Part shown: positions 6,551 through 32,124 of the stretch, piece after piece
How positions within the stretch are numbered: the stretch's first letter is position 1
Layout: each line of letters starts with the position of its first letter
From: Escherichia phage Gluttony
Direction: 5' to 3' (one strand)
Sequence record: NC_031113.1
Length of the DNA: 44,513 nt
Made by a program: the position numbers and the translations under genes
The notes under the pieces: generated by a model
Seen by the model: only the letters and a program-made list of their open reading frames with translations
What the model was told of the DNA's origin: nothing
Database searches by the model: none

Positions 6551-8842
6551 CTACTTGCGGTAGCGATACATGCAATCGCCCTCTGCGGCAAGTGGGAAGC
6601 CTTTCGCCCAAATAGGCAGGTCGCACATCAGCGCGCAAAGCTCCTCTGTCGTGTAGTCGTCGGTGTCCGGCACTTCTGTGATCAATTCATCATGCACCGA
6701 TAGAACGATTTCATAGCCCGCAGCTTCAACGCCAGGCATTGACCAGGCGAGAATATCACGGCACAACGCCTGTACTATGTTCTCCGTCAGTTTGCCGCCG
6801 TAGGTATACTGGAAGCCCCACTGGCGCGTCGTCTGATTCTCGCCCTGATATTTAATGCGGGTGCTGGTGCGTTTCTTGCCGGTATCTTCGTCGATCTCGG
6901 TCGTCACTGACAGCGCAATGCCTGGATAACTCATAATACGCCCCGACGGCAACTCAATTTTCAACCACCACCCCGCGGCGTTCGGGTCGTCGCGTTCCTC
7001 GTCGAAGGTTGGGTCATGCTTCGCCTTCGTGCGGACTATCTTGAGCGCTTTCTTACCATCCGGGCGAACGTTCGCGCCAGCCCAGTACGCTTTGCCAGGA
7101 TTGCGGATTGCACACAACACCGCGTCCTCAAGCTCGGCCCAAAAGGCTACCGTCTTCGGGTGAGCCTCGCGCCACATGCGTTTAATCGCATCACACGTAA
7201 GCCATACGTTTTTCGGCAGTATGTAAGTCGGGCGCTCGTCCTTCTTGCCAGGCTTTGGCGGTCGCTTCGCTTCGTTAATGCGGGCGTACTCATAACCCCG
7301 TTTAGCCGCTGCCCAAATGTGATCGGGGAATGTGCCCTTCATGACGTCCGCCATCGCGTAAAGGTCGAGGCCCAGGTTTTTAGCGAACTGCAAGAACGCC
7401 GCGACGCCGCCACCATAGCCCAGCCCCAATTCGCACGCCTTACCGATCTGGCGTAAGTCCTTGCGGTTAGCTTTAATGTAGTCCGGGTCCAGGCCGAACA
7501 TCTTACCGGCAGTCTCACAATAGATATCGCGACCGGCCTTAAACACCATTAGCGCGGTTTTCTCGCCTGCGATCCAGGCAAGTCCACGCCCTTCCACGTT
7601 GGAGTAGTCCGCTACGACAAACTTCTTGCCCTTAGCCGGGATAATGCACCCGCGAACGGTCGAGGCTGTTAGCTTAGATATGTCATACGCCCAGTGCGCG
7701 GTCCCGCGTAACAGGGAATTGATGCCGTTGGTGAGCATGTGCGACCGGACCCAAAAAGCAACGTCGCTCTCGCCTTCGCGGCGCTTAATCTTCCCTTCGT
7801 GATCGTCGCTATACTCGCCGCGTGCCAGGTTTTGAGGCTGGAAGCCTTTACCCGCCCAGCGCAGCGTGCGCTTTGCACCACCATACTGAAGACACCCACG
7901 GCGGCGACCATCTGCGGATAAGCCGTTAACTAGCGGATTGTACTTAGTCGATGCCGTTGATGACGCTCCGAGGCGCATTTCTATAAGCGCTTTGCCTTCG
8001 TCGGGGAAGTCCGGGTCTTCAAGCAGGTCGTTAAGTGTGGATTTCTGCGCGTTGTGGATCGTGAACGCCGGGGCGATATCACGTAGGATTGGCAGGAAGT
8101 CATTGCCGGTCAGCTTACCGCCAAATCGCTCCCAGGCTTCCTCTTTCAATTCTTCCTTATGCGCCTGTACCGCTTTGATCGCAGCGCGCGCCAGGTCAAC
8201 GTCCACGTAGAAGCCGCGGTCGTTAATCAATTGGTCGATAAGCAGGATTTCGTCTTCCTTCGGCGTATTACCCCAGTCCGGTATGCGCCAATAGACTTCC
8301 CTCATCGCGATGATATCCAGCGCGGCATAGCGCAGGAATTTAGCCCACTCCTCGGGGTGCGTCTTGCGCGTGTAGCGGCGGATTTTGTAGGTCTTAGGGG
8401 TAGGCTTACAGAATCGTTTAATCAGCGCCTTGCCTGCCTTATCCTTCGCGTGCTCTGCGTCAACGCCCAGCACCTGACACTGCATATCGAGGCTACCCGG
8501 CAGCGCGTGCCGAAAGGCCATAATCATGGTATCTTCGATCTGGCTTACCGGCAGATCTATACCCCACTTCTCGCGAATAACAAGGCGGTCAAACAGGAGG
8601 CCGTTAGCCATCACTATTTTTGCTTTCTTGCGGGATACACGGCGGAGTGCCTTGCGCAGTTCACGCGGCATTGTTGGGGATTCAGTGGCATCCCATGTCT
8701 GCACGCGGCCTTCGTCGATGGCGTAGGTGCAAATCATAATCTCGGTGGTTTGGTGCTCTGCGTAGGCGTACGCCCCTACTTTCTTCAGGTCCACCCCGCT
8801 AAATGTCTCGGTGTCGAGAAACAGACGTTCGAAGTCTTTCAT
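6551..8842 (-). CDS. Family A DNA polymerase with 3'-5' exonuclease domain
   Basis: Exo I LDTETFS; motif A DYSNVEGR; motif B RKDLRQIGKACELGLGYGGG; motif C VHDE. Confidence 0.9.
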   Translation of the reverse strand: MKDFERLFLDTETFSGVDLKKVGAYAYAEHQTTEIMICTYAIDEGRVQTWDATESPTMPRELRKALRRVSRKKAKIVMANGLLFDRLVIREKWGIDLPVSQIEDTMIMAFRHALPGSLDMQCQVLGVDAEHAKDKAGKALIKRFCKPTPKTYKIRRYTRKTHPEEWAKFLRYAALDIIAMREVYWRIPDWGNTPKEDEILLIDQLINDRGFYVDVDLARAAIKAVQAHKEELKEEAWERFGGKLTGNDFLPILRDIAPAFTIHNAQKSTLNDLLEDPDFPDEGKALIEMRLGASSTASTKYNPLVNGLSADGRRRGCLQYGGAKRTLRWAGKGFQPQNLARGEYSDDHEGKIKRREGESDVAFWVRSHMLTNGINSLLRGTAHWAYDISKLTASTVRGCIIPAKGKKFVVADYSNVEGRGLAWIAGEKTALMVFKAGRDIYCETAGKMFGLDPDYIKANRKDLRQIGKACELGLGYGGGVAAFLQFAKNLGLDLYAMADVMKGTFPDHIWAAAKRGYEYARINEAKRPPKPGKKDERPTYILPKNVWLTCDAIKRMWREAHPKTVAFWAELEDAVLCAIRNPGKAYWAGANVRPDGKKALKIVRTKAKHDPTFDEERDDPNAAGWWLKIELPSGRIMSYPGIALSVTTEIDEDTGKKRTSTRIKYQGENQTTRQWGFQYTYGGKLTENIVQALCRDILAWSMPGVEAAGYEIVLSVHDELITEVPDTDDYTTEELCALMCDLPIWAKGFPLAAEGDCMYRYRK

Positions 8843-9009
8843 TGCTTTATCCTCACTACGGCGTCAGCGCTGCCGATCATGGAGAAGATGCCGTCTGACA
8901 GGGCAATCTCTTCGCCGTTGTTGCGAATCTCGGCAACTGTGAAATATTCCCCCAGTAGCTTAGACCATACTTTCATTCCGACTTTTACTTCGCTGGCTTT
9001 AATCCGCAT
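8840..9009 (-). CDS. Small hypothetical protein, 56 aa
   Basis: Hand-translated ORF (MRIKASEVKVGMKVW...) with an AGGA RBS; its stop overlaps the polymerase start. Confidence 0.3.
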
Positions 9010-9020
9010 TTTTCATTGTC

Positions 9021-9049
9021 CTATTAAAAAGCCCGCATTAAGCGGGCTT
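9021..9049 (-). terminator. Rho-independent terminator after the SSB-like gene
   Basis: 8-bp GC stem AAGCCCGC/GCGGGCTT followed by a T-run on the minus strand. Confidence 0.6.
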
Positions 9050-9067
9050 GAATAGTGGGCTTTGCCC

Positions 9068-9841
9068 TTAACGGCGGCGACGTTTACGTGGCGCTTCGTC
9101 TTCGTCGTCGTCCTCATCTTCGTCATCGCGTGGTTTACGACGTTTGCGAGGTTTTTCGTCGTCGTCGTCATCGCTGCGCTTGGACTTTTTGGACTTACGC
9201 GGCTTGTCGTCTTCGTCATCGTCATCACGACGTTTTGACTTTTTGGACTTACGCGGGCTTTCATCTTCGTCATCGTCGCCCAGGTCTTCGTCGGAACATG
9301 AAGACCCGCCACCGCCGAAGGCTTCTCCGTCATCGCGGAAGCGCATACCCAGCAGACCACAGCCTAAGCCTTTGCCGTTGGTATTGTTCCAGGCCCAAAT
9401 ATCTAAGGAAACGTTGCAATAGCAACCGGAATAGATTTCCTTCCCTTCGATTTCGTCGCCGTCGATGGTCAGACCCTGCTCCGTCTGCTTCTCGCCTTCG
9501 GAAGTCTGGATGATCGGCTGTTTGAATGATTTGGCATTGATGTACAGCTTTCCTTCAAACTCTTCCGTCACTTCTTCACGCTCGTCACCATCACGAACTG
9601 CACATTCTTTCGAATCCTGTGCGTAGTGGCGGTCCATCCACTTATCGGCGTTCTTTTCAGACTTCAGCTTTTCGGTGAGCACTGCGCGTGCCGCCGCTTC
9701 CACTTTGTCCACCTGCGGATCTTCTTTATCAAGAATAATCACCGCACGATATGCCGGTTTTTGTCCATCCTGTTTAGGGGTGTCACGCTCCCAAATTTTC
9801 GGGAAGCATACACGTACATTTTTCAGGTTGACTTTAGCCAT
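9068..9841 (-). CDS. Phage ssDNA-binding protein (DUF2815-like) with alternating acidic/basic C-terminal repeats
   Basis: MAKVNLKNVRVCFPKIWE N-terminus with GAGGAA RBS; C-terminal DDDEDE/PRKSKKSKR repeats. Confidence 0.55.
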   Translation of the reverse strand: MAKVNLKNVRVCFPKIWERDTPKQDGQKPAYRAVIILDKEDPQVDKVEAAARAVLTEKLKSEKNADKWMDRHYAQDSKECAVRDGDEREEVTEEFEGKLYINAKSFKQPIIQTSEGEKQTEQGLTIDGDEIEGKEIYSGCYCNVSLDIWAWNNTNGKGLGCGLLGMRFRDDGEAFGGGGSSCSDEDLGDDDEDESPRKSKKSKRRDDDDEDDKPRKSKKSKRSDDDDDEKPRKRRKPRDDEDEDDDEDEAPRKRRRR

Positions 9842-9937: not shown

Positions 9938-10171
9938 TTATTTATTAAAAAGTTTTAAAATCAGGTCGAGATATTTGTGCAGCCACACCAGTGGCGGGCG
10001 GTGCACGTTGTTTTCCATCCAGTTCAAACAGGCTTCGTTATAGCCGTCGTCCCATAAGCGGGATGGGTGGCGAATCATCCAGGCCAGCGCCAGCAGACCG
10101 CCGCAGGTATGTACTACGAATCCCAGTGCCGCCAACGGCAGCACCATAATCATTGCCAGAATCTTATTCAT
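9938..10171 (-). CDS. Small membrane protein
   Basis: Two hydrophobic segments (ILAMIMVLPLAALGFVV, GGLLALAWMI). Confidence 0.4.
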   Translation of the reverse strand: MNKILAMIMVLPLAALGFVVHTCGGLLALAWMIRHPSRLWDDGYNEACLNWMENNVHRPPLVWLHKYLDLILKLFNK

Positions 10172-11594
10172 CGTTTAAATCCTCGTCGCTTGCTTCTTGC
10201 CATTCCGGGCGCGGGTCGTCAACTGGTGCCAGGACTGGTTTCGCAGGTGCACGCGTGATTTTATCTTGCAGCTTCGCCCACACTTTCGGTTTCTCATCCT
10301 TCAGCACCTTCTCGGCATCAGTAGGGCTGATTAATGATTCCTTGTACATCAGGTCGCGCTTGATCCGGGCCGTTGTGAATACAGCGATAACTTCGCTTTC
10401 ATCCTTCCACTTACGCGCACCTTCACGACCTGCTACCAGCTTCAGGCCCAGCGCTTCGCCGTCACCGGCTAACACTGCTTTGAATACGGCAGCCTCGATC
10501 GCTTTGATGTGCTGGCGCATGGTTTCCAGACCGTCGTAAGCCTTTTTCAATTCTTCCGTGGTCATTGCACCGGCTGGCGCTTCTTTCTCGCCACGCTTCG
10601 CACGTCGGGCCGCTTTCCGGGCTTCGCGGGCCATGTTCCGGTCGTGGTTTTTGCATTCTTCCTCGGTGGCAATGCTTACATCGTCGCCCAGGTCTTCGTC
10701 GGTTGCCGTTGGTGGCGTCATTGTGTCGATGGCGGCTTTAGCGCGGGCACTACATTGATCCGCAAATCGACACCACTGACACGCATCGGCGCTCGGACGG
10801 AAGTCTGCACGGGTGAGATTCTTCTTACCCTTAGCGAAGGCATCCAGGGCGGCTACTGCGCGTTTTGCTGCGTACTTGGCGAAGATTTCCAGTGCTTCCA
10901 CTGAAATATCCCACTCCGATGCGCCGCCGCAATACGGCTGGAAGATGACCAGGCGAACGGTGGTAATGTCGTACATCTTTTGCAGCTTGCGCAGCAGACC
11001 GAGCGCATACAGCATAAGCTGTTTGTTCTCTTTCGCCTCGACCTTATGGCGTCCGGTCTTCAGGTCGCCAACAATCAGCATGTACGTGCCGTCGGTCTTC
11101 TTCATGACCATAACCATATCGGCAGTACCGAAGGTTTTAATCACCTCGCCGTCAATCTCGTAGCCTTTGTGCAGGACGCGTGTCAGATCCGCGCGCATCT
11201 CGAGCTGAACAAACTCCGCCACTTCGAGGAGCGGTCGCCAGTGGTCGATGTACGCGTCGCACTGTTTCACCATATCGTCGTTGACCAGTACGCCGCCTTT
11301 CGGTGCTTTCGGGTGTGCCTTTACTGGCCCCTTTCCTTCGTTCTCGACGTAACACCCTTTATACGTCTTTGCGGTTATCAGCTTTTCACCGGCGATAATG
11401 CGGTTTAGCACGACTTCAGATACGGTGTGCATACTCGTACCGTTAATCGCGGCTTGCCCGGATTCGTTTGGGATATCTTTTTCTACCACCAGAGCGGCAG
11501 GGCAACCCATCCATTTTTTAGCACCGGACGGCCCGAGTAATGAGTGTTCGGTATTGCTACCGGATTGCGTCTTACGTTTTGGTTTAATCGCCAT
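10164..11594 (-). CDS. PD-(D/E)XK (RecB/Cas4-like) exonuclease with Cys cluster and C-terminal extension
   Basis: GTADMVMV, IVGDLKTG, QLMLYA motifs; CQWCRFADQC cluster. Confidence 0.65.
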   Translation of the reverse strand: MAIKPKRKTQSGSNTEHSLLGPSGAKKWMGCPAALVVEKDIPNESGQAAINGTSMHTVSEVVLNRIIAGEKLITAKTYKGCYVENEGKGPVKAHPKAPKGGVLVNDDMVKQCDAYIDHWRPLLEVAEFVQLEMRADLTRVLHKGYEIDGEVIKTFGTADMVMVMKKTDGTYMLIVGDLKTGRHKVEAKENKQLMLYALGLLRKLQKMYDITTVRLVIFQPYCGGASEWDISVEALEIFAKYAAKRAVAALDAFAKGKKNLTRADFRPSADACQWCRFADQCSARAKAAIDTMTPPTATDEDLGDDVSIATEEECKNHDRNMAREARKAARRAKRGEKEAPAGAMTTEELKKAYDGLETMRQHIKAIEAAVFKAVLAGDGEALGLKLVAGREGARKWKDESEVIAVFTTARIKRDLMYKESLISPTDAEKVLKDEKPKVWAKLQDKITRAPAKPVLAPVDDPRPEWQEASDEDLNDE

Positions 11595-12035: not shown

Positions 12036-12065
12036 CTAAAAATAGGCCCGCAGATTAGCGGGCCG
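12036..12065 (-). terminator. Rho-independent terminator after the first leftward early gene
   Basis: GGCCCGC/GCGGGCC stem followed by TATTTTT on the minus strand. Confidence 0.55.
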
Positions 12066-12072
12066 GATAATA

Positions 12073-12579
12073 TTAATCTTCCAGTTCGAAATAAGTTTCG
12101 ACGATTTCTTTTAGCTCTTTGTGGAAGTCTTCGACGTCGTCATCTTCCAGCTTAGCGATTGATTTGATTTCGAACGCGTCCAGCAGATCATCAAATTCGT
12201 CGTTCGCGTCGTCGTCATCACCGCCCGCGATAATCGCGGCATACTGTTTGATCTCGTCGCGCATCTCCGCCAGCGGATCGGCATCTTTCTTGCCTTTGCC
12301 CTTCGCCGGTGCTTTTTTAGACTTAGCCGGTTTTGCGTCTTCGGCGTCTTCGTCGTCATCTTCGACTACTTCTTTTTTAGCCTTACCTTTCGCCGGGGCT
12401 TTTTTAGATTTAGCCGGTTTTTCGTCTTCGTCGTCATCTTCGACAACTTCTTTTTTGGCCTTAGACGGCTTCTTGTCTTCCTGCTTACCAACGGCAGCGC
12501 CAACGGTTTCATAATGCTTAGCGATGACTTCCAGTGCTACTACGCCGCGAGTGATCAGGTTTACGATTTGCTCAAACAT
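12073..12579 (-). CDS. Highly charged tandem-repeat protein, first gene of the leftward early operon
   Basis: Start at MFEQIV with GGAG RBS; two copies of KKEVVEDDDEDEKPAKSKKAPAKGK; polyacidic C-terminus. Confidence 0.6.
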   Translation of the reverse strand: MFEQIVNLITRGVVALEVIAKHYETVGAAVGKQEDKKPSKAKKEVVEDDDEDEKPAKSKKAPAKGKAKKEVVEDDDEDAEDAKPAKSKKAPAKGKGKKDADPLAEMRDEIKQYAAIIAGGDDDDANDEFDDLLDAFEIKSIAKLEDDDVEDFHKELKEIVETYFELED

Positions 12580-12775: not shown

Positions 12776-12805
12776 ATGATAGATTGGTTGCAGGATGGGT
12801 GTCAA
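12776..12805 (-). promoter_or_regulatory. Leftward early promoter (TTGACA-18-TATCAT)
   Basis: Consensus -35 read on the minus strand, about 190 nt upstream of the ATG at 12579. Confidence 0.5.
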
Positions 12806-13321: not shown

Positions 13322-15586
13322 ATGAGCTTAATTAAATTCGCTGTAACAAGACCCGCTAAAAAAGGCGAAAAAGCCAGGGCGGAAAACTTCCAGATGACGA
13401 CCGATGAATTTTTCGAATTTATCAAAGATGCGAAAGAGATATCGTCGGTGCATATCAACAAGACGGAAGATAAAGCCGAGTATGCGCGCCGCAAGCGTAA
13501 GGCCGATGGCATCGTAGCGTATACCAGTGACGGCTTACGCCGCAAGACCAGTGCGGTGGACCGCTCGATCCTGTTCTTCGATATTGACCGTACCGACACC
13601 CGCACCCTACGCCGCTGCCGTAAGGCTTTCATCGACGCGGGGCTGGAGCACGTATTTCACACCACAACCGGCGACCGCCACCCGCTGAAAGGCGGCACGC
13701 GTTGCGCTCGTTTCCTGGTGCTCACCGACAAGCCTGTACCGGCTGAAGACCTGGGCCGCGTCCAGTACGCACTATTACACCAACTGGGCCTGTCAGATGT
13801 GGACTTCGATGATTGTACGAAAGACACAAACCGCCTGATGTACCTGCCACACCAGCAGTCTGTTATTAAGTGCCACTACGGCAAGCGTGCCCGCGTCCGT
13901 CGTCTGCTTCGCCTGGCGGATAAGTTGGGCGTGGAGAAGGAGGAAGTACGCCGCGAGCTTACCCAGGGCGACGACGCAGTGGCAGACGGCATTCTGGACT
14001 GGTGCTTCCAGGCAGGATTCGAGGAGTTATCTTCCGGTCGCGGTTATGAAGTGCCGTGCCCGAACGAACATCTGCACAGCGGCGAAGGGTCGACGGCTAT
14101 CATGGTCAAGGATGGCGAGATCCGTTTCAAGTGTATGCACACCGGCAACGAGTGTTGCTCGGAACTGAACAGACACCAGCACCTGGCGCTACGTCTTATC
14201 GGGATCCCGGACCACCTGAACGTCGAGCCGCACAACATGTCACGTAAGCAAATCGCCGCCATCCTTCCGGGACTGGACGATGAGGAAGTGGAATCGTGCT
14301 ATGAACATATCGTTGATGCGGTCGGAGACGGCGACGAGTACGGCGTGTGTACTGATGCAGACCTGGACAACGAGCCGGTCGCACTGTTCAGTAAGCACGA
14401 CCCGATCATCGAAGGCCTGGTCAACTTCAAATCGACCTGGTATCTCGCCGGTGAGTCGAACATTGGCAAGTCGTTCTACGTGCTGGGCCAGATGGCGTCA
14501 GTATCTGCCGGTATTCCGTTCGGCGGTGCGAAGGTCGTCCAGTCTCATTGCTTCTATTTCGATGCGGAAGGTGGTGAGGCCTCCAACCAGCGTAAAGAAG
14601 CACTGCAGATCAAATATGAGCACGACCTGGACAAGCTGCACATTATCGATCTGCAATCACGCGGCTGGGATATCACCAGCAAATCCGGCTTGCGTGAAGT
14701 TATCAGCTTCATCAACCGCACCGCTAACGGCGAGCCGGTTGGCCTGGTGGCGTTCGACTCACTCAACCAGACTGTTGCGCTGCGGTCCGCCGATGCAAAA
14801 CCGTTCGACGAGAATAACGCCAGCGATATGGGTGAAGTGGTCAAAGCGCTGAAGGCCATTGCGGAAAATACAGGCGGCAGTGCGGGCGTCATCCACCACC
14901 CGGCGAAGGGTGCAAACGGCAGCAGATCTCCCCGTGGGTCCGGCGCGCTGCATGGCGCTGTCGATTCTGCGTTCTTCCTGGAACAGCCGGACGACAACCA
15001 GCCAGGTCAACTCAACCTGTATCACGAAAAATCCCGTAACGGCATCAAGCAAGCGCCGCGCGGCTTCGTCCTGCTCAAGTGCAAGGTTAAGGTGGATCTC
15101 CGCAAGTCCGAGGCGTTCGAAGCCCACCAGTCCACCAGCACCGGGCCGGACTTCGGTGACGTCGTTGCCGGTTGGGACGTCAAGCCGATTGCCTCCACGC
15201 CACGCGACGAGACTCTTTACCTCGTACCGGTCGCCCTGGCACCGTTCGCCATTGAGCAGGCAAAGGCCGCTGGCAAGGCCGCAGTTAAGGAAGAGAACGC
15301 CGCAGGACCGCGCAACGAAAAAGAGAAAGTGCTTTATGCAGCGCTGGAAAAACTGATGGAAGATAACCCGGACCATACCGGATTCAGCAAATCGGCAATT
15401 GTCCGCCAGGCTGGGCTTGCGAAAGGTGGCACATCGACGAAGGCAATTGACGATATGGTCGAGCGCGGCGTGCTCGGTTTTTATACCGATCCGCACACCG
15501 GGGCCATCTATGGGTCGTCGAATATCGTCATCAAAACGAAGATACCCATCACGCTTTCGGCGACCGATGACGACTTAAAAGATTAA
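13322..15586 (+). CDS. Primase-polymerase (AEP-like) fused to a RecA/DnaB-like ATPase; replication initiator candidate
   Basis: FFDIDRTD acidic motif, Cys/His zinc cluster, Walker A GESNIGKS, Walker B FYFDAEGG. Confidence 0.7.
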   Translation: MSLIKFAVTRPAKKGEKARAENFQMTTDEFFEFIKDAKEISSVHINKTEDKAEYARRKRKADGIVAYTSDGLRRKTSAVDRSILFFDIDRTDTRTLRRCRKAFIDAGLEHVFHTTTGDRHPLKGGTRCARFLVLTDKPVPAEDLGRVQYALLHQLGLSDVDFDDCTKDTNRLMYLPHQQSVIKCHYGKRARVRRLLRLADKLGVEKEEVRRELTQGDDAVADGILDWCFQAGFEELSSGRGYEVPCPNEHLHSGEGSTAIMVKDGEIRFKCMHTGNECCSELNRHQHLALRLIGIPDHLNVEPHNMSRKQIAAILPGLDDEEVESCYEHIVDAVGDGDEYGVCTDADLDNEPVALFSKHDPIIEGLVNFKSTWYLAGESNIGKSFYVLGQMASVSAGIPFGGAKVVQSHCFYFDAEGGEASNQRKEALQIKYEHDLDKLHIIDLQSRGWDITSKSGLREVISFINRTANGEPVGLVAFDSLNQTVALRSADAKPFDENNASDMGEVVKALKAIAENTGGSAGVIHHPAKGANGSRSPRGSGALHGAVDSAFFLEQPDDNQPGQLNLYHEKSRNGIKQAPRGFVLLKCKVKVDLRKSEAFEAHQSTSTGPDFGDVVAGWDVKPIASTPRDETLYLVPVALAPFAIEQAKAAGKAAVKEENAAGPRNEKEKVLYAALEKLMEDNPDHTGFSKSAIVRQAGLAKGGTSTKAIDDMVERGVLGFYTDPHTGAIYGSSNIVIKTKIPITLSATDDDLKD

Positions 15587-15744: not shown

Positions 15745-15902
15745 AAGCGGGACAAAAAGCGGGACAAACAAGGGGCGGGACAAAGCGGGACAGCACCCCC
15801 GTCCCGCCACGGATGGCGCGGCTTCCAGAGGAGCGGGACAGCGGGACAGCACCCCAGTCTTTCAGACTAGACGGGGGTCAATGGCCCCCCTCGTCTGAGA
15901 CT
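15745..15902. repeat. GCGGGACA iteron-like array A with 3' hairpin module; putative origin or regulatory cassette
   Basis: At least six GCGGGACA copies at about 11-bp spacing, then CAGTCTTTCAGACTAGACGGGGG...CCCCCCTCGTCTGAGACTG; near-identical to 31965..32124. Confidence 0.6.
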
Positions 15903-31493: not shown

Positions 31494-31810
31494 TTGAGGC
31501 GGCGCGACGCTTTTATGGCCCGCCGCCACCCTCCGAAGATTTAGCCGCAAGTTTATGGGGTGCGTCCCCCGAAGATGTTTGTCCGCCTGTTGCGTTATGG
31601 CCTGACAACGCGAAGATAGTCGCAGTATTCACGGATTGTGCCACGCAATGGCGCACCGGATTTGGTGGCGCATACGGCATCGATTACGGCGTGCTGGAGT
31701 GGTTATTTAAGATGCACGGTATCGAAAACGAGCAGCGCGCGTTTAAAGATATCAAGCTAATGGAACGAATCGCGCTTGATGAAATGGCGCAGCAGAACCA
31801 CGCACAGTGA
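31116..31810 (+). CDS. Tail assembly chaperone frameshift product (gpGT-like) via programmed -1 frameshift at 31484..31490
   Basis: Slippery A_AAA_AAC in the 0 frame; the -1 frame is open for 106 codons from 31490 to the TGA at 31808..31810. Confidence 0.7.
31484..31490 (+). other. Programmed -1 ribosomal frameshift slippery heptamer A_AAA_AAC
   Basis: Codons gaA AAA AAC TAA; fits the X_XXY_YYZ pattern. Confidence 0.7.
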
Positions 31811-32124
31811 AGCGGGACAAAGCGGGATGTCCCGTTTTGTCCCGCCTCTGTAAAACTGCATATCTAATCACTCCCATTGCATAAACCAAAAGAGGGACAG
31901 GCGGGACGTCCCGTTTTGTCCCACCCCATAAATGTGCATATCTATTCGCATTTCGTGCATAAAACAAACGGGACAAAAAGCGGGACAGACCAGGGGCGGG
32001 ACAAAGCGGGACAGCACCCCGTCCCCGCCAGTGCTGCCGCTGGTTTCAGCCGATCGGGACAGCGGGACAGCACCCCAGTCTTTCAGACTAGACGGGGGTC
32101 TGGCACCCCCCTCGTCTGAGACTG
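31811..32124. repeat. GGGACA iteron-like array B with palindromic units and the same 3' hairpin module as array A
   Basis: About 14 GGGACA copies including palindromes GGGACAAAGCGGGA-TG-TCCCGTTTTGTCCC; 32055..32124 near-identical to 15833..15902. Confidence 0.65.

Follow-up and report, generated by a model that had tools for sequence, protein, structure and literature searches.

Alternating acidic and basic blocks in the C-terminal tail of a T7 gp2.5/Enc34-type single-stranded DNA-binding protein of Escherichia phage Gluttony and its relatives

[quoted passage not shown] The SSB gene of Escherichia phage Gluttony therefore raises the question of what is represented by an SSB tail that alternates between acidic and basic blocks and ends in arginines, and whether it belongs to this protein or to a wider repeat module. 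A sequence-only reading of the 44,513-nucleotide stretch of DNA analysed here (NC_031113.1; the window) had singled out the mixed-charge tail as atypical, justly in light of the Enc34 work, and had proposed that its repeats are shared with a second early protein. The source is a Dhillonvirus-type siphophage of E. coli. Its SSB gene (9068..9841, minus strand) encodes 257 amino acids plus a stop codon when counted from the ATG, the listed ORF of 288 residues corresponding to an upstream TTG start.

The proposed identity as a DUF2815/gp2.5-type SSB was borne out. The protein matches Pfam PF10991 (Enc34_ssDNA-bd, formerly DUF2815) over residues 3-193 at 112.2 bits against a cutoff of 26, corresponds to PHROG 112 ("Gp2.5-like ssDNA binding and annealing protein"; E = 5e-56), and by sequence also matches PDB entries 4jg2, 4klk and 5odj; the gene shows 85-93% nucleotide identity to Dhillonvirus phages. 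An OB-fold domain is predicted for residues 1-176 (9314..9841, minus strand) from AlphaFold2 and Foldseek, with pLDDT of 90-98 over residues 1-170. The model retrieved 4klk, 5odl and 5odj at E = 1e-11 to 1e-10, with 4jg2 also a top match, and T7 gp2.5 (1je5), an OB-fold SSB of the same structural type, at E = 5e-6. Sequence match and predicted fold together identify the protein as the phage's replicative SSB, of the T7-gp2.5/Enc34 type. Its likeness to Enc34 ORF6 (PDB 5ODJ, 5ODK, 5ODL) extends from Pfam family and predicted fold (Foldseek TM-score about 0.7, target-normalised) to a chain that leaves the OB fold through a Gly-rich segment and continues as an unstructured tail opening with an acidic/hydrophobic stretch, and to a genomic module of DUF2800 nuclease, SSB, family-A polymerase and helicase-primase. 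The tails themselves differ: that of Enc34 ORF6 is short, with D or E at 16 of its last 29 residues, whereas the Gluttony tail runs to 74 residues, of which 27 are Lys/Arg, grouped in four blocks; likewise the SSB of PK4, a Chivirus relative of Enc34, ends in ...DWEDEV and that of Gluttony in PRKRRRR. The Gluttony tail is thus unstructured and acidic at its start, but with 27 K/R beside 33 D/E and its basic end it is not the purely acidic tail of PF10991 SSBs. Because such a tail describes the family rather than defining homology, membership in PF10991 stands.

The tail (residues 184-257; 9071..9292, minus strand) comprises four acidic and four basic blocks, in the order DEDLGDDDEDE / SPRKSKKSKRR / DDDDEDD / KPRKSKKSKRS / DDDDDE / KPRKRRKPR / DDEDEDDDEDE / APRKRRRR. 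The alternation and the RKRRRR ending had been correctly perceived from the sequence, but not the extent: there are four acidic-basic pairs rather than three, in 74 residues rather than about 65. Charge runs number 8, against a mean of 30.8 and a minimum of 16 in 2000 residue shuffles, and the charge-segregation index is 0.45 against 0.09 in shuffles (maximum 0.24); the alternating blocks are far from chance. The fraction of charged residues is 0.81 and the net charge -6 over 74 residues. AlphaFold2 gave pLDDT of 44-55 and no secondary structure for residues 177-257, and the whole tail is predicted to be disordered. High charged fraction, low net charge, segregation exceeding that of shuffles and predicted disorder are therefore all present, and the tail is a polyampholyte with strong charge segregation and a net charge that remains negative (-3 to -11), akin in its charged fraction, near-balanced charge and extreme segregation to the blocky polyampholytes in the sense of Das and Pappu. 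Like histone SPKK-type repeats it opens each basic block with Pro-Arg/Lys (xPR[KR] in every case), but a check for S/T-P-K/R-K/R found SPRK in the first block only, the rest reading KPRK, KPRK and APRK. Both classes are physico-chemical descriptions, not families homologous to the tail.

Three layers make up this tail: a proximal motif, SDEDLGDDDEDE; a near-neutral spacer of one to three acidic-plus-basic pairs, variable in number; and an invariant arginine-rich tip, PRKRRRR (with its preceding alanine, residues 250-257; 9071..9094, minus strand), identical in close relatives. A 54-nt tandem repeat detected by TRF (9159..9277; 2.2 copies, 86% match) encodes both PRKSKKSKR units and so builds part of the tail, and the spacer is made and resized by in-frame slippage of this repeat.

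The SSB gene region is present in 153 Dhillonvirus-type phage records, and mixed-charge-tailed relatives occur also in sampled Jerseyvirus (VT223), Eiauvirus (eiAU) and the unclassified coliphage Ivi. The tails of relatives, on which the sequence-only reading had staked its interpretation, divide with distance. One to four basic blocks occur in 94 of 94 homologues with at least 42% identity in the OB domain, as that reading would have it, whereas 22 of 23 with no more than 38% identity bear an ordinary acidic tail without a basic block, as it would not. Across the family, for which 2175 hits were obtained, mixed tails recur in 15 of the 146 representatives left after clustering at 50% identity, some of which retain a canonical DDLV or DDDI end, and other low-complexity tails are Q/P-rich, G/F/D-rich or composed of RD/RS repeats. 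Where the OB domains of phages are more than 90% identical, unit number still ranges from two to four and changes in frame, which indicates that no precise tail length is required and also fits weak selection; in the indels of aligned relatives an acidic and a basic block are gained or lost together with the frame kept. Where aligned tail positions differ, substitutions within a charge class (1245) outnumber acid/base flips (127). The window, all eight related loci with an extracted SSB, proteins P0001, P0002, P0004, P0005 and P0020, and phages SECphi4 and SECphi18 have PRKRRRR in identical form; Jerseyvirus VT223 (TPRRERRRNR) and phage Ivi (APRRERRRR) carry Arg-rich tips related to it. A basic terminus is nonetheless not universal, since an acidic block closes the tail of some relatives (...RRNYEDDEE). 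Literature searches returned no report of SSB tails of mixed charge. The tail is a real new variant of a known SSB family and a clade-wide departure, within a large and well-sampled phage group, from the acidic-tail rule.

The canonical acidic SSB tip has its counterpart in the proximal motif, S-D-E-D-L-G-D (residues 183-189; 9275..9295, minus strand), the acidic/hydrophobic sequence that opens the tail. Peptides of the same kind are carried by the DUF2800/PD-(D/E)XK exonuclease (10164..11594, minus strand; PF10926 at 237 bits, PF12705), internally as T-D-E-D-L-G-D (10683..10703, minus strand) and C-terminally as S-D-E-D-L-N-D-E (10167..10190, minus strand), both kept in eight related phages, and by the replicative helicase-primase (13322..15586, plus strand; AAA_25 domain, and so annotated in relatives), which ends in T-D-D-D-L-K-D (15563..15583, plus strand), a C-terminus conserved in relatives. 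The motif-bearing peptides are SSCSDEDLGDDDEDE, QEASDEDLNDE and LSATDDDLKD. The pattern [ST]D[DE]DL occurs four times in the window's proteome, always in replication proteins, against 0.059 expected (0 of 2000 shuffles). Over 21 lineages the SSB motif co-varies with the exonuclease C-terminus (28.0 within genomes against 21.5 between genomes; z = 5.7, 0 of 20000 permutations), two controls giving z = 1.9 and -0.6. SSB, exonuclease and helicase-primase carry clade-specific versions: TDEDL in Dhillonvirus, TE[ED]DLE in Jerseyvirus and Ivi, DDDL in eiAU, DLV in BIP-1 and WDDEV in Chivirus, in which the tip was also seen on the SNF2 helicase. An exact 24-nt repeat (9271-9294 = 10679-10702) was considered as a conserved DNA element and rejected; its copies differ at synonymous sites in other phages, which points to a peptide motif with coincident preferred codons.

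The same acidic/hydrophobic peptide thus stands on SSB and helicase-primase, as in T7, where the gp2.5 tail and the C-terminal DTDF peptide of gp4 bind a basic patch of the polymerase (PMC12339929). The T7 SSB and helicase-primase have similar acidic, Phe-ending tails, whereas in Gluttony [ST]D[DE]DL has Leu as its hydrophobic residue and a third carrier, the exonuclease, with two copies. The gp2.5 motif is moreover the very C-terminus; that of the Gluttony SSB is internal, with 63 mixed-charge residues (195-257) after it. E. coli SSB likewise combines an OB fold, a low-complexity disordered segment and a short acidic/hydrophobic protein-binding motif, but belongs to a different fold family, and its linker is Gly/Gln/Pro-rich, nearly uncharged and placed before the tip, whereas the Gluttony segment, about 80% of it charged, comes after the motif. 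In E. coli SSB, the linker tunes cooperativity and phase separation. Mixed-tailed SSBs retain the acidic docking motif and add basic blocks and, usually, an Arg-rich end. That a lineage-specific tip is common to SSB, DUF2800 exonuclease and helicase-primase predicts a single docking site organising a very common phage replication module, a side result that may be more useful than the tail itself.

The second protein implicated by the sequence-only reading, here termed P2 (168 aa; 12073..12579, minus strand), is the product of the first gene of the leftward replication operon. It corresponds to PHROG 3127 (E = 8e-52) and was found in 153 phage records, the same number as the SSB region. AlphaFold2 predicts a helix at residues 2-29, disorder at 30-100 and a three-helix bundle at 102-164; the fold had no PDB match with E < 0.5, BFVD yielded uncharacterised relatives only, and Pfam only a sub-threshold low-complexity match to BUD22. 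The disordered mixed-charge linker (12280..12492, minus strand; pLDDT 33-49) consists of two units of KKEVVEDDDEDEKPAKSKKAPAKGK and contains an 87-nt direct repeat (12284-12363 / 12371-12450, 83%). Natural variants carry from zero to more than two linker units (115-180 aa in total), and the linker, fully lost in some of them, is on this sequence evidence dispensable. The P2 peptide NDEFDDLL, entertained as a free mimic of the SSB tip, was set aside, as it sits in a confidently predicted helix of the three-helix bundle.

The best explanation of the locus as a whole, to which we give an even chance of being right, is a three-layer tail with an electrostatic mechanism, that mechanism probably consisting of interactions of the tail with itself and with DNA. 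The proximal motif would do the classical job of docking on a basic surface. A candidate surface is the DNA-binding groove of an OB fold, either its own or that of a neighbour, as seen in crystals of Enc34 and gp2.5; those of Enc34 ORF6 show tails inserted into the neighbour's beta-sheet groove, and deletion of the tail permits dsDNA binding (PMC5686142). An alternative candidate is the polymerase (6551..8842), as in T7. Helicase-primase and exonuclease may use the same site via the same motif. The basic blocks would be electrostatic counter-stickers, pairing with acidic blocks in their own tail or in neighbouring ones and touching the DNA backbone, with tuned auto-inhibition, stronger SSB-SSB cooperativity or clustering on ssDNA as the likely outcome; strand annealing could gain as well. 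Unit number would set valency, a range being tolerated. We infer this cooperative, zipper-like role of the basic blocks from general polyampholyte physics and from analogy.

Other accounts of the basic blocks assign the weight differently. They may be auxiliary nucleic-acid-binding arms, of SPKK-type or arginine-rich character, with the acidic blocks mere spacers or masks; such arms would fasten the SSB to adjacent duplex or primer-template, or hold together two strands coated with SSB in gp2.5-style annealing with the neighbouring exonuclease. The xPR[KR] start of each block (a literal SPRK in the first), the invariant arginine-rich tip (RRERRR in relatives), the annotation of the family as an annealing protein, and the position of the SSB gene two genes downstream of the PD-(D/E)XK exonuclease, with a 77-aa ORF alone intervening, are consistent with this, as is the finding that tail charge governs discrimination between dsDNA and ssDNA in Enc34 ORF6 (PMC5686142). 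However, the net tail charge is negative and each basic block has acidic neighbours of equal or greater charge, which would oppose DNA binding by the tail, and the S/T of a true SPKK motif is found in one of four units only; we consider the proposal possible, if doubtful. That the alternating blocks are instead largely neutral low-complexity expansion, function residing only in the proximal motif and perhaps the tip, seems unlikely. Slippage of a GAY/AAR-rich repeat would be tolerated since each addition brings an acidic and a basic block whose charges balance, and the existence of the tandem DNA repeat, the spread of two to four units among phages with OB-domain identity above 90%, the complete loss of the analogous P2 linker in natural variants and the quite different low-complexity tails elsewhere in the family all suit this account. 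Against it, despite deep divergence, not one of the 94 homologues at 42% identity or above is missing a basic block; frame is preserved through the indels of aligned relatives, and the two database proteins that depart from it, P0003 and P0006, look like indel errors; aligned positions strongly conserve their charge class; and branches of the family that are unrelated have come to carry similar tails.

Turning to P2, the cassette reported from its sequence does recur there, DDDEDEKPAKSKK being found twice, and the peptide DDDEDxKPxKSKK is common to P2 and the SSB tail. The module built upon this, in which tail and P2 central region would both derive from a single mobile repeat through exchange or co-conversion of DNA, is very improbable and already largely refuted. 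The P2 region is the window's best DNA match to the tail after the 24-nt repeat (67% over 54 nt ungapped; 75% over 69 nt gapped), and at the protein level the score marginally beats a null that preserves the acidic/non-acidic layout (28 of 2000). Yet the DNA local alignment score of 53, reached by none of 1000 codon shuffles, is reached by 156 of 1000 synonymous redraws of both peptides, so that the DNA adds nothing beyond peptide similarity and codon bias, and the relatedness suggested for 9130..9260 and 12290..12470 is not confirmed in that form. A BLASTP match of E = 1e-10 disappears once composition-based statistics are applied; similarity of tail and P2 across eight phages shows no within-genome excess (98.9 in own against 98.8 in other genomes), on which ground gene conversion between the two genes was rejected; and the basic halves differ systematically, being R/K/S-rich in the SSB and K/A/P/G-rich, with no Arg, in P2. 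The two proteins share a style of disordered charge-block linker, common descent or DNA exchange being unsupported, and orthologues of both in phages eiAU, VT223 and Ivi display the same style. A more speculative extension, which we rate as quite improbable, makes SSB tail and the linker of the co-expressed P2 multivalent electrostatic stickers that would condense SSB, P2, exonuclease and helicase-primase onto ssDNA in a membrane-less replication/recombination focus, with repeat number tuning valency and PRKRRRR as dedicated nucleic-acid or partner anchor; if true, the phage would have equipped a classical SSB with a coacervation device of its own. It is likewise hard to credit that the tail is an anti-defence adaptation whose basic blocks change perception by SSB-monitoring host sensors (Retron-Eco8 msDNA, Hachiman, ShosTA). 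The homologous, same-tailed SSBs of SECphi4 and SECphi18 do trigger Retron-Eco8, as does T7 SSB (bioRxiv 10.1101/2022.08.27.505566), but these phages are still sensitive to the retron, and the C-tail of T7 SSB is dispensable for Eco8 activation (bioRxiv 10.1101/2025.11.11.687766). Escape mutations in SECphi4 and SECphi18 map either to the OB domain (T56P) or to the promoter, and none to the tail, so that existing genetics is silent on the tail.

Returning to the three-layer tail, its natural forms with two, three and four units provide a series for asking how charge patterning controls auto-inhibition, cooperativity, annealing and partner hand-off, and because the same SSB is a known Retron-Eco8 trigger, tail effects on immune sensing are testable too.

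Several lesser features accompany these genes. An alternative-frame ORF (9013..9360) was rejected as a real product: the points at which two database proteins cross into this frame differ, which looks like the outcome of indel errors. Directly 3' of the SSB stop lies a terminator-like hairpin read by eye, GCCCGC-TTAAT-GCGGGC followed by TTTTT (9024..9049, minus strand), which was absent from the output of a consensus scan; Rfam gave zero structured-RNA matches across the whole window. A second terminator-like hairpin (12045..12064, minus strand) is directly 3' of the P2 stop codon, and upstream of P2 is a sigma-70-like promoter, TTGACA and TATCAT with an 18-nt spacer (12776..12805, minus strand; 11 of 12 positions). 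Promoters are annotated at the equivalent place in the HK578 record.

The SSB of the window (9068..9841, minus strand) starts at the ATG at 9841 and has 257 residues, the form in which its relatives are annotated; the 288-residue version in a mechanical ORF list uses an upstream TTG. It matches PF10991 (Enc34_ssDNA-bd, formerly DUF2815; 112 bits) and PHROG 112, and its AlphaFold2 model, confident over residues 1-170 (pLDDT 90-98), matches the DUF2815 structures 4klk, 5odl, 5odj and 4jg2 at E = 1e-11 to 1e-10 and T7 gp2.5 at E = 5e-6. A Gly-rich exit, FGGGGSSC, precedes the tail, DEDLGDDDEDE-SPRKSKKSKRR-DDDDEDD-KPRKSKKSKRS-DDDDDE-KPRKRRKPR-DDEDEDDDEDE-APRKRRRR. The repeated acidic-basic pattern noted in the sequence-only reading holds, its extent being slightly greater than was counted there: four acidic/basic pairs in 74 residues, 81% of them charged, with a net charge of -6. 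Charge falls into 8 runs where 30.8 are expected, none of 2000 shuffles giving fewer than 16; the segregation index, 0.45, exceeds the highest shuffled value, 0.24, and the tail is modeled at pLDDT 44-55 without secondary structure. Its DNA contains a 54-nt tandem repeat (9159..9277; 2.2 copies, 86% match). A 115-aa alternative-frame ORF (9013..9360, minus strand) is also open across the entire tail and beyond the SSB stop; the database proteins P0003 (phage 22664B1) and P0006 enter this frame at differing positions, probably through indel errors in low-complexity repeat rather than programmed frameshifting.

In the window, eight Dhillonvirus-type phages with an extracted SSB and the nearest database clusters, SSBs of 218-263 aa share this tail design with 2, 3 or 4 basic blocks, differing by in-frame indels in which an acidic and a basic block are lost together, while the PRKRRRR end is invariant. 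The tail is layered into a docking motif, a variable charge-balanced spacer and an invariant Arg-rich tip. More divergent versions include DDDLSDDDDEPRSVSRRRSRDDEDD… in eiAU, ATDSDLDDDDDKPSKPKRRPSRDEDDEEEERPRKKRRNYEDDEE in a large Salmonella-associated group, and the minimal form SVDDLEDDEDETPRRERRRNR in Jerseyvirus VT223 and phage Ivi. Comparison of relatives' C-termini, as the earlier reading had suggested, gave a divided answer: 94 of 94 homologues with at least 42% identity in the OB-fold domain (residues 1-176) carry one to four basic blocks, whereas 22 of 23 at 38% or less carry none and end in ordinary acidic tails, which are short and include a hydrophobic residue. A wider search, over one representative per 50%-identity cluster, yielded 2175 family members; acidic-plus-basic tails are present in 15 of the best 146 full-length ones, among them unrelated branches whose poly-D/RS-R repeats run to as many as 170 residues and which still end in DDLV or DDDI. 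The charge-striped tail is thus fixed in one large enterobacterial-phage branch, and in other parts of the family it is a solution that has recurred. Other DUF2815 SSBs (P0254, P0273, P0304, P0334, P0341, P0352, P0355, P0360) bear long, very different low-complexity tails, Q/P-rich (QQPPAQQY repeats) or G/F/D-rich (GGDGFDFGG), and in one an RD/RS-type alternation extends over 170 residues to an RRDDLV end; the tails of the family are far more diverse than the literature implies. In Enc34 ORF6, the experimentally solved member, the tail is purely acidic, a feature that its authors ascribe to all prokaryotic and phage SSBs (PMC5686142), in contrast to the acidic and basic blocks found here. Our literature search for charge-striped (mixed-charge) SSB tails found no paper describing one. 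While the PF10991 family was already known, the striped tail is real, clade-wide and, as far as searched, undescribed.

The proximal part of the tail is shared with other replication proteins. The 58-gene proteome of the window contains the pattern [ST]-D-[DE]-D-L four times, against 0.059 expected (0/2000 shuffles): at SSB residue 183 (9275..9295), at exonuclease residue 298 as TDEDLGDD (10683..10703), and at the C-termini of the exonuclease (…SDEDLNDE; 10167..10190) and the helicase-primase (…TDDDLKD; 15563..15583). A repeat search also retrieved an exact 24-nt direct repeat encoding DEDLGDD, at the start of the SSB tail (9271..9294) and in the exonuclease gene (10679..10702); since synonymous differences separate these copies in other phages, it is the peptide that is conserved, and the repeat was dropped as a DNA element, reflecting coincident codon choice. 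Across the window and related loci (L011-L016, L017-L096) the acidic/hydrophobic motif changes by lineage in concert on SSB, exonuclease and helicase-primase: TDEDL in the window lineage, TE[ED]DLE (TEEDLE) in Jerseyvirus VT223 and phage Ivi, DDDL or SDLED in eiAU, …D[DE]F.D[IV]…DLV in BIP-1, …DFDD[LV] in APSE-2, and …WDDEV on four proteins in Chivirus, where WDDE[VE] ends four replication proteins of PK4; DDFDD..DLI is also among the versions. When the first 35 residues of the SSB tail were compared with the last 22 of the exonuclease in 21 lineage representatives (<70% OB identity) drawn from 96 loci and the window, similarity was 28.0 within a genome and 21.5 between genomes (z = 5.7; 0/20000 permutations); for two control segments z was 1.9 and -0.6. 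The three proteins have a tip code in common, a concrete lead that is cheap to test. There are parallels in T7, whose gp2.5 and gp4 tails alike bind a basic patch of the polymerase (PMC12339929), and in crystals of the Enc34 protein and of gp2.5, in which the tail occupies the OB groove of a neighbor. The window SSB thus keeps the classical docking element, its novelty lying in everything downstream. In exonuclease residues 298-330 (10600..10703, minus strand), TDEDLGDD precedes an acidic stretch and then a basic, helix-like one, REARKAARRAKRGEK, an order echoing the SSB tail; the version in phage bob is shorter.

The sequence-only reading had also proposed that the SSB tail and the early protein P2 (12073..12579, minus strand; 168 aa, PHROG 3127) share a repeat module with related underlying DNA. 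P2 begins with an invariant helix, continues with a disordered linker (pLDDT 33-49) that holds two units of KKEVVEDDDEDEKPAKSKKAPAKGK, and closes with an acidic three-helix bundle, confidently modeled; its natural variants of 115-180 aa carry from zero to more than two units, so the cassette is dispensable there, and the orthologues of eiAU, VT223 and Ivi have mixed-charge linkers of different sequence. The local DNA score of 53 is not reached by codon shuffles (0/1000), but synonymous redraws reach it in 156/1000, removing the case for related DNA. At the protein level, BLASTP gives E = 1e-10 without composition correction and no match with it; a shuffle keeping the acidic/non-acidic layout is only marginally beaten (28/2000); similarity within a genome (98.9) shows no excess over that between genomes (98.8); and the basic halves are unlike, Arg/Lys/Ser in SSB and Lys/Ala/Pro/Gly in P2. 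A shared module is therefore not demonstrable, and its being a mobile one is very improbable. What the two proteins have in common is the style of their linkers, which may answer to a functional pressure acting on both.

For the SSB tail we propose that the acidic motif would dock on a basic surface, the OB groove or the polymerase, also used by helicase-primase and exonuclease, while the basic blocks may have as partners both acidic blocks, of their own or of neighboring tails, and DNA phosphates, thereby modulating auto-inhibition and raising cooperativity, clustering or annealing. This anatomy and the attendant roles, taken as a whole, we judge about evenly balanced between right and wrong, holding the anatomy with much more confidence than the inferred role of the basic blocks. 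That these blocks are instead an auxiliary nucleic-acid-binding arm seems doubtful. The tail is predicted to be disordered and has the dynamics of repeat slippage together with a conserved charge pattern, same-charge-class changes outnumbering acid/base flips by 1245 to 127 among differing aligned residues; a mostly neutral slippage expansion is unlikely. The sole study handling this protein identified the SECphi4 and SECphi18 SSBs as Retron-Eco8 triggers and modeled residues 1-186, omitting the "flexible C-terminal residues" (bioRxiv 10.1101/2022.08.27.505566); we give very little credence to the tail being an anti-defence adaptation.

The locus around the SSB is 85-93% identical in nucleotide sequence to Dhillonvirus siphophages of E. 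coli (rolling, SSL-2009a, Envy, HK578). The leftward early operon runs from a sigma-70-like promoter (12805..12776) through P2, two small ORFs, the DUF2800/PD-(D/E)XK exonuclease (10164..11594), a 77-aa ORF, SSB and a 56-aa ORF (8839..9009, minus strand; PHROG 10102) to the family-A DNA polymerase (6551..8842), the helicase-primase (13322..15586) being divergently transcribed. The SECphi18 homologue of the 56-aa ORF carries the frameshift E21fs in a defence-escape mutant (Stokar-Avihail supplementary table). GC-rich hairpins with T-runs lie directly 3' of the SSB stop (9024..9049, minus strand) and the P2 stop (12045..12064, minus strand), which suggests that the transcripts for both charge-block proteins are attenuated or terminated separately, and probably abundant. 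AAGCGGGAC is present in six exact copies (0.48 expected) grouped in two clusters, 15745..15791 and 31810..32012, the second region including a 79-nt repeat (31819..31986); these repeats could be origin or regulatory iterons, and their equivalents appear in the SO-1 record as annotated repeat regions A and B, beside its helicase-primase gene.
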